Position numbers and translations under genes: made by a program. Below the pieces are notes generated by a model, which was not told the origin of the DNA, did no database searches, and saw only the letters and a program-made list of their open reading frames with translations. From NCBI RefSeq assembly GCF_988243305.1, contig NZ_OZ547136.1: a stretch of DNA of 64,000 nucleotides; one strand, written 5' to 3'. This document shows positions 3,442 through 44,520 of this stretch, one piece after another. Numbering within the stretch: position 1 is the stretch's first letter; the number at the start of each line of letters is the position of its first letter.

Positions 3442-4406
3442 TACCCCCGAAAGCGGTCTTGATTCTCAAGGAACCACTGGTAAGTGCTGGCAAGCCCCGC
3501 TTCCAGTGAGATTTCGTGATACCAGCCAAGCTGATGCAGGCGCGTCACATCCAGCAGTTTGCGCGGCGTGCCATCCGGTTTGCTGGCATCAAAAACCACC
3601 CGGCCTTTGTAACCCACCACTTTGGCGATGGTTTGCGCCAGCTCGCGGATAGTGCAGTCAACGCCCGTGCCGACGTTAATGTGCGACAACATCGGCTGGG
3701 TGTTCTCCAGCCAGACTTCATGCGCCAGCTCCATGACATGAATGCTCGCCGCCGCCATATCATCGACGTGCAGAAATTCGCGCATCGGTGTACCGCTGCC
3801 CCATACCACCACGTCCGGCGCATTCTGTGCCGTCGCCTCGTGGAAGCGACGCAGCAATGCTGGGATCACATGCGAATTACTCGGGTGGAAGTTGTCGTGT
3901 GGCCCGTACAGGTTGGTCGGCATGACTGAGCGGTAATCGCGTCCGTACTGGCGGTTGTATGATTCGCACAGTTTGATCCCGGCGATTTTGGCAATAGCAT
4001 AAGGCTCGTTAGTCGGCTCCAGCGTGCCCTGCAACAACTCGCTTTCTGCCATCGGCTGTTTTGCCAGTTTCGGGTAGATGCAGGACGATCCGAGAAACAG
4101 CAGTTTGTTCACGTCGTTCTGATGCGCGGCGTGAATGATGTTGCTCTCAATCATCATGTTCTGGTAGATGAAATCCGCCGGATAGGTGTTGTTGGCAACA
4201 ATGCCGCCCACTTTCGCCGCCGCCAGATAGACCTGGTCAATACGTTCGCTGGCAAAGAAATCATGCACGGCGCGGCTGTCCAGCAGGTTCAGCTCGTCGC
4301 GGGTGCGTAATACCAGTTCCACATCACCGCGCTGTTCGAGCTGCCGCCTGATGGCAGAACCGACCATCCCGCGATGGCCAGCGATAAAAATGCGTTGTTT
4401 ACTCAT
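3441..4406 (-). CDS. fcl: GDP-L-fucose synthase (GDP-4-keto-6-deoxymannose epimerase/reductase)
   Basis: 321-aa [26 protein letters not shown] with a Rossmann GxxGxxG motif, short-chain dehydrogenase/epimerase fold; follows gmd. Confidence 0.92.
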
Positions 4407-4408
4407 GC

Positions 4409-5530
4409 TTATGACTCCAGCGCGATCGCCACGTCGTAGCCGTGAGATTTCAGCAGAGAGTGTTTTTTCGCCGCTTCGAGGTCATTAGCCACCATTTCAG
4501 ACACCATCTCTCTGAGGGTGATTTCCGGTTTCCAGCCCAGTTTTTCGTGCGCTTTGGTCGGGTCGCCGAGCAGCGTTTCAACTTCTGCCGGACGGAAGTA
4601 ACGCGGGTCAACGGCGATAATCACATCACCCGGTTTAACGCCCGGCGCGTCATGCCCGGTGACGGAAACCACAATGCCCTTCTCTTCAACACCCGTGCCT
4701 TCAAAGCGCAGTTTGATGCCCAGCTGTGCTGCCGCCATTTCCACGAACTGACGTACGGAGTACTGAACGCCGGTAGCGATAACAAAATCTTCCGGCTGTT
4801 CCTGTTGCAGCATCATCCACTGCATTTTTACGTAGTCTTTGGCATGGCCCCAGTCACGCAGGGAATCCATATTGCCGAGGTACAGACACGACTCCAGCCC
4901 CTGGGCGATGTTGGCGATTGCGCGGGTGATTTTGCGGGTAACGAAGGTTTCACCGCGGCGCGGGGATTCATGGTTGAAGAGAATACCGTTACAGGCGTAC
5001 ATGCCGTAGGATTCGCGGTAGTTAACGGTGATCCAGTAGGCGTACAGTTTGGCGACCGCATACGGAGATCGCGGGTAGAACGGCGTGGTCTCTTTCTGCG
5101 GAATTTCCTGCACCAGACCATACAGTTCAGAGGTGGAAGCCTGATAGAAACGAGTTTTCTTTTCCAGACCGAGGAAGCGGATCGCCTCCAGCAGGCGCAG
5201 CGTACCCATCGCGTCGACGTCAGCGGTATATTCTGGTGACTCAAAAGAGACCGCAACGTGGCTCATTGCGCCCAGGTTGTACACTTCATCCGGCTGTACT
5301 TCACGCAAAATGCGCGTCAGGTTAGAGGTATCACTCAGGTCGCCATAATGCAGATGGAATTTCGGGTTGCAGGTGTGCGGATCCTGATAAATGTGATCCA
5401 CGCGCTCGGTGTTGAATGACGATGCGCGACGCTTAATACCATGCACCTCGTAACCTTTTTCCAGCAGAAACTCTGCCAGGTAAGAACCGTCTTGTCCGGT
5501 TACACCGGTGATGAGAGCGACTTTTGACAT
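4409..5530 (-). CDS. gmd: GDP-mannose 4,6-dehydratase
   Basis: 373-aa [38 protein letters not shown], a canonical Gmd N-terminus. Confidence 0.93.
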
Positions 5531-5555: not shown

Positions 5556-6104
5556 TTATTCAGTTTCAACGCGTTCGCGTATCACCACTGCGGGATTCCC
5601 CCGGCAAACCACATTTGCCGGAAGCGATTTAAAAACACTGCTTCGTGCACCCACGACGGTGCCGTCGCCGATTGTGACGCCTGGGGCAACAAAGACATCG
5701 GTTGCCAGCCAGCATTTCTCGCCAATCACAATAGGCGTGGCGTTAATGGTGAAATGTTGACTTGCATGGTCGTGGCTACCGGTGCATAAATAACTTTTTT
5801 GCGATATCACCGAATGTGCGCCAATGGTTATTTCACCGAGGGTATATAAATTGACGTCATCGCCGACCCACGCGTAATCACCTAAGGTTAATTTCCACGG
5901 ATAGGTAATTTTTACTGACGGACGAATAACTACGTTTTTTCCTATTTTTGCTCCGAATAAACGTAATAAAAAAGCCCGCCAGCGATACAATACTTGTGGC
6001 GACCAGGCAAATATTGTTGCCTGTACTGCCCACCATAATTGCACTTTAATAGCGTTGCCGCCCCGGAACCCTTTCGGCACCGAGAAACCGCTTAAATCTT
6101 GCAT
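5556..6104 (-). CDS. wcaF: Colanic acid biosynthesis acetyltransferase WcaF (hexapeptide-repeat family)
   Basis: 182-aa ORF with left-handed beta-helix hexapeptide repeats (IGAHSVISQKSYLCTGSHD...VIGEKCWLATDVFVAPGVTIGDGTVVGARSSV). Confidence 0.88.
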   Translation of the reverse strand: MQDLSGFSVPKGFRGGNAIKVQLWWAVQATIFAWSPQVLYRWRAFLLRLFGAKIGKNVVIRPSVKITYPWKLTLGDYAWVGDDVNLYTLGEITIGAHSVISQKSYLCTGSHDHASQHFTINATPIVIGEKCWLATDVFVAPGVTIGDGTVVGARSSVFKSLPANVVCRGNPAVVIRERVETE

Positions 6105-6119
6105 TGGTTTTCCTTATAT

Positions 6120-6866
6120 TCAGACTTTGTTATATAAGGCTTTCGTCTTTGAGGTAGTACGTTGGCGTAAATGCCAGGATAATTCAGCCCAAAAGCCAGG
6201 CACATGTAATATTTGTCGTTGGACTTTTTTCGCGTCAGCACACAATTCCATATTATTGGTGGTAGATACCCCACCCATGGAAAATTCAGACACCAGGCCA
6301 TTGAGTTTTTTAAATGCATAACCGGCTTTATACATTTTGGCTGCCAGCGCGTAGTCGGAAGAAACTTTATATTCCAGGTCATAACGCCATTTTTTCAAGC
6401 CGGATACAGGGAAAAATATCGCCTGATGACTGGCGGGCAGGCTGTGATAAATATACCAGCCCGGTTTGGCGCTACGTTTAATTTTATGCCCGTCGCCAAA
6501 ATCCAGCAGCGCATCGCCGGTGATCATCACGTTATCTTTTTGCATTTTTAACTTACGGACAAAATTTGCGGCATTCTGATGAAAAATATCGCCCGAATTG
6601 AGAAACAACGCGAACTTGCCTTGTGCCATCGCAATGCCTTTGTTCATGGCGTCGTAGATACCGTTATCTGGCTCGCTGACAAAGCGTAGGTTAAAGATAC
6701 CATTGAGATTTTCCAGATACTCACGGGTGCCGTCGTTGGAACCGCCATCGACAACAATCCATTCGAAGCTGATATCTTCCACCTGCGCCAGATGCGCCAG
6801 CGAGGCATGTGTTTTGACTATCCCTTCGAGGTTACGAAACGCGACAGTGATTATGCTAAGCAACAT
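6120..6866 (-). CDS. wcaE: Colanic acid biosynthesis glycosyltransferase WcaE (GT2 family)
   Basis: 248-aa [26 protein letters not shown]...[10 protein letters not shown], a GT2 signature; operon position. Confidence 0.88.
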
Positions 6867-31445: not shown

Positions 31446-31463
31446 TTTTTCTCCCTTATTGGC
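31446..31463 (+). promoter_or_regulatory. Candidate BaeR-binding box upstream of mdtA
   Basis: TTTTTCTCCCTTATTGGC read at 31446-31463 matches the reported BaeR box consensus TTTTTCTCCATDATTGGC at 16 of 18 positions; about 55 nt upstream of the mdtA ATG. Confidence 0.6.
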
Positions 31464-40380: not shown

Positions 40381-41780
40381 AGTTCTGGCGACCCGGTATT
40401 ACCGGCAAACTGTTTCTGGCGATTTTCGCCACCTGCATTGTCTTGCTGATCAGTATGCACTGGGCGGTGCGTATCAGTTTTGAGCGTGGCTTTATTGATT
40501 ACATCAAACACGGCAATGAACAGCGATTACAGCTGTTAAGTGATGCGCTTGGCGAGCAGTATGCGCAGCATGGCAACTGGCGCTTCCTGCGCAACAACGA
40601 TCGCTTTGTCTTTCAGATCCTGCGTTCATTTGAACACGATAATTCGGAAGATAAACCCGGCCCGGGTATGCCTCCGCACGGCTGGCGTACTCAGTTCTGG
40701 GTGATCGATCAAAACAACAAAGTGCTGGTTGGTCCGCGAGCGCCGATTCCACCTGACGGTACACGGCGACCCATTCTGGTCAACGGTGCGGAAGTGGGTG
40801 CGGTGATTGCCTCCCCTGTTGAGCGACTGACCCGCAATACTGATATCAATTTCGATAAACAACAGCGGCAAACCAGCTGGCTGATTGTCGCCCTGGCTAC
40901 GTTACTCGCGGCACTCGCCACCTTTCTGCTGGCGCGTGGTCTGTTGGCCCCGGTCAAACGGCTGGTGGACGGCACGCACAAACTGGCGGCGGGCGATTTC
41001 ACTACCCGCGTGACACCCACCAGTGAAGATGAACTGGGCAAACTGGCGCAAGACTTCAACCAGCTTGCCAGCACGCTGGAGAAAAACCAGCAAATGCGGC
41101 GCGATTTTATGGCCGATATTTCTCACGAACTGCGTACGCCATTAGCGGTGCTGCGCGGTGAACTGGAAGCCATTCAGGATGGCGTGCGTAAATTCACGCC
41201 GGAGACGGTGGCGTCTTTACAGGCGGAGGTCGGTACACTGACCAAACTGGTTGACGATCTCCATCAGTTGTCGATGTCTGATGAAGGCGCTCTCGCCTAT
41301 CAAAAAGCACCGGTAGATTTGATCCCACTGCTGGAAGTGGCGGGCGGCGCATTTCGCGAACGATTCGCCAGCCGTGGCCTGAAACTGCAATTTTCCCTGC
41401 CAGACAGTATTACCGTATTTGGCGATCGCGACCGTTTAATGCAGTTATTCAATAACTTACTGGAAAACAGCCTGCGCTACACTGACAGCGGCGGTAGCCT
41501 GAAAATCTCTGCCGAGCAGCACGACAAAACGGTGCGACTGACCTTTGCCGACAGCGCGCCGGGCGTCAGTGACGATCAGCTACAAAAATTGTTTGAACGT
41601 TTTTATCGCACCGAAGGTTCCCGCAACCGAGCCAGCGGCGGTTCCGGGCTGGGGCTGGCGATTTGCCTGAACATTGTTGAAGCACATAATGGTCGCATTA
41701 TTGCTGCCCATTCGCCTTTTGGCGGGGTAAGCATTACAGTAGAGTTACCGCTGGAACGGGATTTACAGAGAGAAGTATGA
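40377..41780 (+). CDS. baeS: Envelope-stress sensor histidine kinase BaeS
   Basis: 467-aa ORF with TM segments, H-box ISHELRTPL and an ATPase G-box (GSGLGLAI); 4-nt overlap with mdtD. Confidence 0.92.
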
Positions 41781-42499
41781 CCGAGTTACCAATCGACGAA
41801 AACACACCGCGTATTTTGATCGTGGAAGATGAACCGAAGCTGGGGCAGTTACTCATTGATTATCTGCGTGCTGCGAGCTATGCGCCAACGTTGATTAGCC
41901 ACGGCGATCAGGTACTGCCATATGTACGCCAGACACCACCGGATCTGATTCTGTTGGATCTTATGCTTCCTGGCACCGATGGCCTGACGCTGTGCCGGGA
42001 GATTCGTCGTTTTTCTGACATTCCGATCGTGATGGTGACAGCAAAAATCGAAGAGATCGACCGCCTGCTGGGGCTGGAAATTGGCGCAGATGACTACATC
42101 TGCAAACCGTACAGCCCACGGGAAGTGGTAGCGCGCGTCAAAACCATTTTGCGCCGTTGCAAACCGCAACGCGAACTTCAGCAACAGGATGCCGAAAGCC
42201 CGTTGATTATCGACGAAGGTCGTTTTCAGGCTTCATGGCGCGGTAAAATGCTTGACCTGACGCCTGCGGAATTTCGTCTGTTGAAAACGCTCTCTCATGA
42301 ACCAGGAAAAGTGTTCTCCCGCGAGCAATTGCTCAATCATCTTTATGACGACTACCGCGTAGTAACCGACCGCACCATCGACAGCCACATTAAAAACCTG
42401 CGTCGCAAGCTGGAATCTCTCGACGCCGAACAGTCCTTTATCCGTGCCGTTTACGGCGTCGGTTACCGCTGGGAAGCCGACGCCTGCCGCATCGTTTAA
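41777..42499 (+). CDS. baeR: OmpR-family response regulator BaeR
   Basis: 240-aa ORF with a receiver domain (ILIVEDEP...[11 protein letters not shown]) and a winged-helix C-terminus; overlaps the baeS stop. Confidence 0.93.
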
Positions 42500-42678
42500 C
42501 ATTTTTTCCTGCCGGAGAAGGCATTCACGCCGCATCCGGCAACATTATCCCACGCATGGTCAGCAAACTGACATTATCTCTCCGCCCTGGCAACCGCCTG
42601 AAAATCGCTCATACTTTAATCGGTAAACAGTTCTTTTAGATGCTGTTTTCGATACGCAATTTCAATCAAGGAGTCATT

Positions 42679-43011
42679 ATGGCTGGTTGGTTTGAACTCA
42701 GTAAGAGCAGTGATAATCAGTTCCGGTTTGTGCTAAAAGCGGGCAATGGTGAGACTATCCTCACCAGCGAGCTATATACCTCAAAAGCCTCTGCGGAAAA
42801 GGGTATCGCGTCGGTGCGTAGCAACAGCCCGCAAGAAGAACGCTATGAGAAAAAAACGGCAAGCAACGGCAAATTCTATTTCAATCTGAAAGCCGCCAAT
42901 CATCAAATTATCGGCTCCAGCCAGATGTACGCCACCGCGCAATCTCGTGAAACCGGAATTGCCTCCGTTAAAGCCAATGGCACAAGCCAGACGGTGAAAG
43001 ACAATACGTAA
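42679..43011 (+). CDS. yegP: UPF0339/DUF1508 family protein YegP (two internal repeats)
   Basis: ORF track start is upstream; I start at MAGWFELSKSSDNQFRFVLKAGNGETI (110 aa, ATG 42679), preceded by RBS aggagt. The two halves are homologous (FRFVLKAGNGETILTSELYTSKASAEKGIASVRSN vs FYFNLKAANHQIIGSSQMYATAQSRETGIASVKAN). Confidence 0.82.
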   Translation: MAGWFELSKSSDNQFRFVLKAGNGETILTSELYTSKASAEKGIASVRSNSPQEERYEKKTASNGKFYFNLKAANHQIIGSSQMYATAQSRETGIASVKANGTSQTVKDNT

Positions 43012-43158
43012 TTACGATGCCGGGCGTGGGTTGTTGGCGTCCGGCGCTTTACCAGCTCCCCCCTACAGCGCTACAATGCCCGCCCTTAAAGTGGGGGCAC
43101 TCCCCTGGCCGCTTCATCAGGTGAAGCGGATCTGACCTGTCATCAGAACGAGAGAATT

Positions 43159-44520
43159 ATGTTTAAACCGGAACTCCTTTCCCCGGCGGGAACGCTGAAA
43201 AATATGCGTTACGCTTTCGCTTATGGCGCAGATGCTGTTTATGCGGGCCAGCCGCGTTACTCCCTGCGTGTGCGCAACAACGAATTTAACCACGAAAATC
43301 TTCAGCTCGGCATCAATGAAGCCCACGCGCTGGGGAAAAAGTTTTATGTCGTGGTCAACATTGCACCGCACAACGCCAAGCTGAAAACCTTTATCCGTGA
43401 CCTGAAACCGGTGGTGGAAATGGGGCCGGATGCGCTGATTATGTCCGATCCGGGGCTGATTATGCTGGTGCGCGAGCACTTCCCTGAAATGCCGATCCAT
43501 CTCTCAGTACAGGCTAACGCCGTGAACTGGGCGACGGTGAAATTCTGGCAGCAAATGGGTCTGACCCGCGTGATCCTCTCTCGCGAACTGTCACTGGAAG
43601 AGATTGAAGAGATCCGCAATCAGGTGCCAGATATGGAGATCGAAATCTTCGTTCACGGCGCGCTGTGCATGGCCTACTCCGGTCGCTGCCTGCTCTCTGG
43701 CTATATCAACAAGCGCGACCCGAACCAGGGCACCTGCACCAACGCCTGCCGCTGGGAGTACAACGTCCAGGAAGGGAAAGAAGATGACGTTGGCAACATC
43801 GTGCACAAGTACGAGCCGATTCCGGTGCAAAATGTTGAGCCGACGCTGGGTATCGGCGCACCAACTGACAAAGTGTTTATGATCGAAGAAGCCCAGCGTC
43901 CGGGCGAGTATATGACCGCGTTTGAAGATGAGCACGGCACTTACATCATGAACTCGAAAGATCTGCGCGCTATCGCCCACGTTGAACGCCTGACCAAAAT
44001 GGGCGTGCATTCGCTGAAAATCGAAGGCCGTACTAAATCTTTCTACTATTGCGCACGCACCGCACAGGTTTACCGTAAAGCTATCGATGACGCCGCTGCG
44101 GGCAAACCGTTCGATACCAGCCTGCTGGAAACTCTGGAAGGTCTGGCGCATCGTGGCTATACCGAAGGTTTCCTGCGTCGTCATACTCACGACGATTATC
44201 AGAACTACGAATACGGTTATTCAGTTTCTGACCGCCAGCAGTTTGTTGGTGAGTTTACCGGTGAGCGCAAGGGCGACCTCGCGGCGGTAGCGGTGAAAAA
44301 TAAATTCTCCGTTGGCGACAGCCTTGAGCTGATGACGCCGCAAGGGAACATTAACTTTACCCTTGAGCAGATGGAAAACGCCAAAGGCGAAGCAATGCCG
44401 GTCGCACCGGGCGATGGTTATACTGTGTGGATCCCGGTCCCGCAGGATCTTGAGCTAAATTACGCGCTGCTGATGCGTAATTTCTCCGGGGAAACCACGC
44501 GTAACCCACACGGTAAGTGA
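43159..44520 (+). CDS. yegQ: Peptidase U32-family protein YegQ (TrhP; associated with tRNA ho5U34 hydroxylation)
   Basis: 453-aa ORF MFKPELLSPAGTLKNMRYAFAYGADAVYAGQPRYSLR, a typical U32 N-terminus. Confidence 0.88.
   Translation: MFKPELLSPAGTLKNMRYAFAYGADAVYAGQPRYSLRVRNNEFNHENLQLGINEAHALGKKFYVVVNIAPHNAKLKTFIRDLKPVVEMGPDALIMSDPGLIMLVREHFPEMPIHLSVQANAVNWATVKFWQQMGLTRVILSRELSLEEIEEIRNQVPDMEIEIFVHGALCMAYSGRCLLSGYINKRDPNQGTCTNACRWEYNVQEGKEDDVGNIVHKYEPIPVQNVEPTLGIGAPTDKVFMIEEAQRPGEYMTAFEDEHGTYIMNSKDLRAIAHVERLTKMGVHSLKIEGRTKSFYYCARTAQVYRKAIDDAAAGKPFDTSLLETLEGLAHRGYTEGFLRRHTHDDYQNYEYGYSVSDRQQFVGEFTGERKGDLAAVAVKNKFSVGDSLELMTPQGNINFTLEQMENAKGEAMPVAPGDGYTVWIPVPQDLELNYALLMRNFSGETTRNPHGK

Follow-up and report, generated by a model that had tools for sequence, protein, structure and literature searches.

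In the 64,000-nucleotide stretch of DNA analyzed here (the window), yegP is likely to be a monocistronic gene of the RpoS regulon rather than a member of the BaeSR operon that precedes it, and to encode a binding module in which two DUF1508 units form a pseudo-dimer. Earlier work has already recorded the gene, the two-domain architecture and structure of its product, and its dependence on RpoS, and as a discovery the finding matters little. It serves instead as a correction: adjacency to baeSR, from which the first-pass annotation had suggested a place in the envelope-stress regulon, should not be taken as regulon membership. The protein concerned is a highly induced, near-universal stress protein of E. 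coli, and its module recurs on the effectors of defense systems.

The yegP gene and its chromosomal site

The gene and its immediate surroundings on the window are as follows:

41777 to 42499, plus strand: baeR, the last gene of mdtABCD-baeSR (open reading frame, annotation)
42668 to 42673, plus strand: Shine-Dalgarno sequence AAGGAG, 5 nt before the ATG of yegP
42679 to 43011, plus strand: yegP coding sequence, YegP/UPF0339/DUF1508 family (333-nt open reading frame, 110 amino acids plus stop)
43159 to 44520, plus strand: trhP (yegQ), tRNA U34 hydroxylase (open reading frame, annotation)

PGAP annotates an identical 333-nt coding sequence, located between baeR and trhP/yegQ, as "YegP family protein," and the encoded protein is identical to the chain of PDB 2K8E ("UPF0339 protein yegP") at 109 of 110 residues. 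When a 901-bp query (42400-43300) was used to search complete E. coli genomes, matches were obtained in 5423 of 5426, with baeR, yegP and trhP/yegQ annotated there. Because of these annotated matches and the PGAP call, the region is identified as E. coli mdtBCD-baeSR-yegP-trhP; and with this distribution (5423/5426), yegP is a near-universal core gene of E. coli that occupies one fixed chromosomal site. Of 5425 E. coli records, no more than 14 reached 99% identity over the same 901 bp, and most fell between 95 and 99%; the window therefore either belongs to an E. coli lineage that is sequenced less often or carries an unusually variable spacer.

We also considered a mobile or defense-related origin for the gene, and rejected it. 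No PADLOC model matched. A search of 50,697 phage records gave just 3 with a YegP homologue, and two of these are probably contaminated with chromosomal DNA. The E. coli matches labeled as plasmids were mostly records as large as a chromosome would be (up to 4.9 Mb).

The K-12 protein (UniProt P76402; PDB 2K8E) is the product of the same gene at the same locus, with the same PGAP name and two DUF1508 domains. It differs by one substitution at codon 37 (42787-42789), where the window strain has A37 and 2K8E/K-12 has T37. In K-12 YegP, phosphorylation has been reported at T37 (PMC8055822). Position 37 is variable among YegP homologues, and the phosphosite is therefore not conserved.

An upstream in-frame ATG at 42640, which would add 42640-42678 and give a protein of 123 residues, was rejected as the start codon on three grounds. 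First, top-down mass spectrometry has detected a YegP proteoform with a monoisotopic mass of 11,885.99 Da (PMC11705214), while the mass calculated for the 110-residue K-12 protein minus Met1 is 11,885.93 Da and those of the 123-residue forms are ~13.4-13.5 kDa. Second, YegP homologues all start with MAGW or MSGW. Third, the ribosome-binding site lies before 42679, and the sequence that contains it, ATCAAGGAGT, was invariant in six enterobacterial loci. Together with the PGAP coding sequence, these observations bear out the extent first given for the gene (42679-43011), and the ribosome-binding site that had been described as strong is real. The chain of 2K8E carries 16 residues before Met1 and may thus stem from a construct that used the older 123-residue start (42640) plus a short tag.

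Promoter and expression of yegP

Three elements in the two spacers that flank yegP are relevant to its transcription:

42587 to 42615, plus strand: yegP promoter CTGGCA-17-CATACT (-35-like element 42587-42592, -10 element 42610-42615)
43019 to 43045, plus strand: GC-rich 9-bp hairpin followed by GCUUUACC, 8 nt past the yegP stop (RNA fold)
43048 to 43077: sigma-70-like TTTACC-18-TACAAT in the yegP-trhP spacer, a promoter-like site for trhP

The first of these was located within the baeR-yegP spacer by published genomic SELEX, with binding by the RpoD holoenzyme (PMC3946193). We aligned the spacer from six loci covering at least four genera (the window, E. albertii, a divergent E. coli, Citrobacter, Kluyvera and an enteric MAG). 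Mean column identity was 53%, yet the -10 element CATACT was invariant in 6/6 loci. A C at position -8, as in ATACT, is typical of sigma-S promoters. The published site and the conserved CATACT thus show that yegP has a promoter of its own with a -10 element of the sigma-S/sigma-70 type. A strict sigma-70 consensus scan called no yegP promoter, the CTGGCA and CATACT elements lying below its threshold.

RpoS-dependent expression of yegP is documented in the literature. In stationary-phase EDL933, the wild type/rpoS ratio for yegP was 185 and the gene was listed as RpoS-regulated (PMC2907692); in O157 Sakai, it was up 4.47 at the growth transition; and in multi-stress and zinc studies, it co-varied with dps, osmY, elaB, otsB and yeaG.

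At the other end of the gene, the hairpin at 43019-43045 may, judging by its predicted fold, form a weak, terminator-like end of the yegP transcript; a terminator scan found no qualifying T-run there. When a ΔzraR mutant was compared with the wild type in LB, yegP changed by -6.65 log2 and yegQ by +1.65 log2 (PMC7657598 supplement). These opposite changes suggest that the two genes are transcribed separately, and also that the RpoS state differs in that mutant.

The two DUF1508 units and their possible ligand

The first-pass annotation had described YegP as two tandem DUF1508-like repeats derived from a duplicated module of ~50 amino acids, and this description stands. The repeats lie as follows:

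42688 to 42840, plus strand: repeat 1, residues 4-54 (Pfam stretch 11-57, self-alignment, AF2 beta-beta-beta-alpha unit)
42841 to 42993, plus strand: repeat 2, residues 55-105, at a 51-residue offset (self-alignment, AF2, mirrored conserved positions)

The Pfam model DUF1508 (PF07411) matched two stretches of YegP with a score of 153.1 bits, far above its cut-off of 22 (E = 1.7e-45). When the N and C halves were aligned with each other by BLASTP, 19 of 44 positions were identical (43%; E = 7e-11). Smith-Waterman alignment of the halves gave a score of 88, compared with a mean of 23.7 (sd 4.7, maximum 55; z = 13.6) for 5000 shuffles of the C half, of which 0/5000 reached 88. The self-similarity thus passes a formal alignment test. 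In the AF2 model, the first repeat is made up of strands 4-9, 15-20 and 26-29 and a helix at 36-49, and the second of strands 56-60, 66-71 and 77-80 and a helix at 87-100; this beta-beta-beta-alpha fold agrees with the solved structures of the family.

Residue conservation was assessed in an alignment of 28 homologues of 110 amino acids, extending down to 48% identity. Conserved positions were mirrored between the two halves at the 51-residue offset, giving the pairs F17/F68, L19/L70, A21/A72, N23/N74, I27/I78, S30/S81, Y33/Y84, G42/G93 and V46/V97. At the DNA level, the repeats aligned in register were 51% identical overall and 36% identical at third codon positions, and the duplication must therefore be old. 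Moreover, orthologous repeats (N-N 54%, C-C 54%) resembled each other more than paralogous ones did (N-C 41% within a protein and 40% between proteins), which indicates a single old duplication with no concerted evolution or homogenization. The internal duplication is already known: both the Pfam entry and the solved structures display the tandem architecture, and tandem DUF1508 domains were described as a pseudo-dimer in a 2024 preprint (bioRxiv 10.1101/2024.11.21.623966).

One pair of equivalent positions departs from the mirrored pattern. L28 (codon 42760-42762) and G79 (codon 42913-42915) were each invariant in the 28 homologues and yet differ from each other, and the halves of YegP are therefore not equivalent. 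The pair represents a fixed asymmetry within an otherwise mirrored pseudo-dimer.

Single-domain UPF0339 chains, such as HVO_2922 (6Q2Z), NMB1088 (3BID) and Atu0232 (2K7I), form homodimers. YegP differs from them in that two units are fused in one chain and have diverged, both overall (41% identity) and at L28 and G79. A single ancient tandem duplication gave rise to the two DUF1508 units, which most likely pack as an intramolecular pseudo-dimer. The YegP chain would thereby reproduce the homodimer of its single-domain relatives, and the fusion would fix the dimer while letting the halves diverge.

Among the homologues, only L, Y, G, S and N residues were invariant; no invariant Cys, His, Asp or Glu was found in the 28-homologue alignment, so that catalysis or metal binding is less plausible. 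YegP may instead act as a non-enzymatic binding module, in which the polar pairs N23/N74, S30/S81 and Y33/Y84, invariant and mirrored, would line a pseudo-twofold binding surface and the L28/G79 pair would set the two halves apart. The use of the tandem module as an N-terminal part of effector proteins and the weak match in a TrpRS family, both described below, also speak for this reading. As ligand, we infer that a single-stranded nucleic acid, or a protein partner accumulating in stationary phase or during stress, is most likely. That YegP binds nucleic acid in particular is less likely than not. The pI of E. coli YegP is 9.4 (6.2 for the N half and 9.8 for the C half), but a basic pI is not kept across the family, where it ranges from 5.3 to 10.1, and this argues against purely electrostatic nucleic-acid binding. 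A more specific proposal, and one that we regard as rather unlikely, is that YegP is a pseudo-dimeric binder of ssRNA, tRNA or ssDNA in stationary phase; the same module would then serve as the sensor head of defense effectors and as a tRNA-binding appendage of some TrpRS enzymes, with L28 and G79 contributing to a single composite site.

A related reading, to which we assign only a small chance, makes YegP a PC4/Whirly-like binder of single-stranded nucleic acid, possibly tRNA, that is functionally tied to trhP. A published comparison calls the dimeric beta-sheet-plus-helix arrangement of tandem DUF1508 topologically similar to the sPC4/Whirly superfamily (PMC12065111), and the C-terminal extension of a TrpRS family model contains a weakly matching DUF1508-like stretch; the basic pI of the E. 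coli protein also fits. No significant structural match of YegP to PC4/Whirly members was obtained, however, and the pI is not conserved. As to the link with trhP, we examined 80 species loci encoding a two-domain YegP, and yegP and trhP were adjacent in only six (6/80). Besides the enteric adjacency, one of these, in the unrelated Burkholderiaceae MAG L022, speaks for a connection: a TrhP homologue (58% identical, 4189-5496) lies ~500 nt upstream of yegP (6001-6330) on the same strand, the sole such adjacency outside enterics among the 80 loci. Against it stand the promoter-like site that trhP has for itself and the opposite changes of yegP and yegQ in the ΔzraR mutant, although the latter come from one comparison.

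We also weighed a role for YegP as a free-standing sensor or adaptor in a conflict pathway, either anti-phage or DNA-damage related. Tandem DUF1508 heads are found at the N-terminus of Menshen NsnA (PMC12065111) and of the ubiquitin-like proteins (Ubl) of Bub operons (bioRxiv 10.1101/2024.11.21.623966), and in our own set an N-terminal tandem DUF1508 was fused to a HEPN RiboL-PSP domain (P0253, 323 aa). In addition, yegP homologues come after capK+capS in 57 cases (PMC13373217), and YegP has a full-length match to PHROG 1422. These associations are outweighed by the behavior of yegP itself: presence at one fixed site in nearly all E. coli genomes is that of a core gene and unlike that of defense islands, PADLOC models do not match, and phage records with a homologue are rare. 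Among the 80 loci, no neighbor was conserved across genera; the neighbors in other genera were of housekeeping type and only genus-specific, as in Pseudomonas and Acinetobacter. We therefore consider a stand-alone conflict sensor improbable, and favor an RpoS-controlled binding module.

Larger architectures built from the same domain were also observed. P0186 (544 aa) has a tandem DUF1508 fused to a proprotein-convertase P domain, and giant DUF1508 arrays occur, with 10 domains in P0121 (1476 aa) and 8 each in P0123 (501 aa) and P0126 (597 aa); the YegP query also matched 5-9 stretches in each of many representatives that are 900-1560 aa long.

Adjacency to baeSR

The remaining alternative is that yegP belongs to the BaeSR regulon, either because transcription of mdtABCD-baeSR continues into it or because it carries its own BaeR site. 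The BaeSR regulon includes mdtABCD-baeSR, spy and acrD, and yegP adjoins the 3' end of the operon on the same strand, as the first-pass annotation had pointed out when it placed the gene just downstream of baeSR after a REP-containing gap. That description is accurate. The gap from the end of baeR (42499) to yegP is 179 nt and contains one such element:

42510 to 42545, minus strand: REP hairpin just past the baeR stop (core match, RNA fold)

Its core (42518-42540, minus strand) matched GCCGGATGCGGCGTRAAYGCCTT with 0 mismatches, and six copies of this core were present in the window against 0 expected. An Rfam search of the intergenic regions gave only one match, to the REP-derived naRNA4, and its 26.4 bits fell short of the gathering score of 59.5. 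No strong intrinsic terminator was detected between baeR and yegP, where the only structures were the REP hairpin and a weak 5-bp stem, and low-level read-through from the bae operon is thus possible in principle. The baeSR-yegP order is, moreover, kept in Escherichia, Citrobacter, Kluyvera and one enteric MAG.

This order did not extend far beyond those relatives. Among the 80 species loci, mdtD-baeS-baeR-yegP-trhP was found in five, all of them close enteric relatives, and the baeSR-yegP-trhP order was absent in Erwinia, Rosenbergiella, Pseudomonas, Acinetobacter, Stenotrophomonas, Shewanella and others. With 5/80 loci, linkage to baeSR is not conserved across taxa. In Shewanella, for instance, the homologue SO_3888 of S. 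oneidensis (PDB 2K49) is 65% identical to YegP, while yegP at the Shewanella locus examined (L073) lies beside neither baeSR nor trhP.

Published expression and binding data also separate yegP from BaeR. When ΔbaeR was compared with the wild type by RNA-seq in ethanol, mdtA, mdtB, mdtC, mdtD and spy changed by -4.0, -3.8, -3.6, -3.4 and -5.8 log2, respectively (PMC7657598). Thus mdtA-D fell 10-16-fold, while yegP (b2080) was absent from the differentially expressed genes of ΔbaeR; the whole supplement of that study names it once, in the ZraR comparison. There was likewise no yegP entry among the BaeR ChIP-exo peaks of the same study, in which mdtA and spy were present. yegP was also missing from the RegulonDB list for BaeR (eight genes) and was not mentioned in a BaeR overproduction study in which eight genes were up (PMC2731931), and the published operon annotation stops at baeR. 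BaeR-dependent expression of yegP is therefore not seen in the published lists, the conditions covered being those of the ethanol and overproduction studies; this is the outcome that the first-pass annotation had named as refuting its suggestion.

The predicted properties of the protein are in keeping with this separation. YegP is a 12-kDa hydrophilic protein (GRAVY -0.69), and no N-terminal hydrophobic, signal-peptide-like stretch was found in its sequence; for these two reasons it is probably cytoplasmic, unlike a typical envelope-stress effector. Spy, a BaeR target, is periplasmic.

We also searched for BaeR boxes, using motifs presumed to represent the site. Two of these, TTTTTCTCCATDATTGAAAG and TCTNCANAA, were discarded because they did not detect the mdtA promoter, which served as the positive control. 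The third, TTTTTCTCCNTDATTG, which we presume to be the core of the box, is a motif trimmed after inspection of the mdtA promoter and is by itself a weak test. In a scan of the 64 kb, its sole exact match was at the mdtA promoter (31446-31461, 0 mismatches), and nothing was found in 42500-42680 at up to 3 mismatches. The BaeR-box-like sequence at the mdtA promoter reads TTTTTCTCCCTTATTG and lies ~60 nt ahead of the start of mdtA (31518), which fits the published ChIP-exo peaks at mdtA.

With its own conserved promoter, RpoS dependence, a spacer that contains no BaeR-box-like sequence, no reported effect of BaeR on its expression and a restricted synteny, yegP is very unlikely to belong to the envelope-stress (Bae) regulon, and that part of the initial reading is not upheld.

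The spacer between baeR and yegP is itself variable, and 42500-42560 represents an insertion site. The REP element was present only in Escherichia (the window and E. albertii). The spacers of Citrobacter, Kluyvera and the enteric MAG carried neither the REP nor the different insert of ~100 bp, with the palindrome CCCTCTCTGAAAAAGAGAGGG, that was found in the divergent E. coli (L002:5780-5880).
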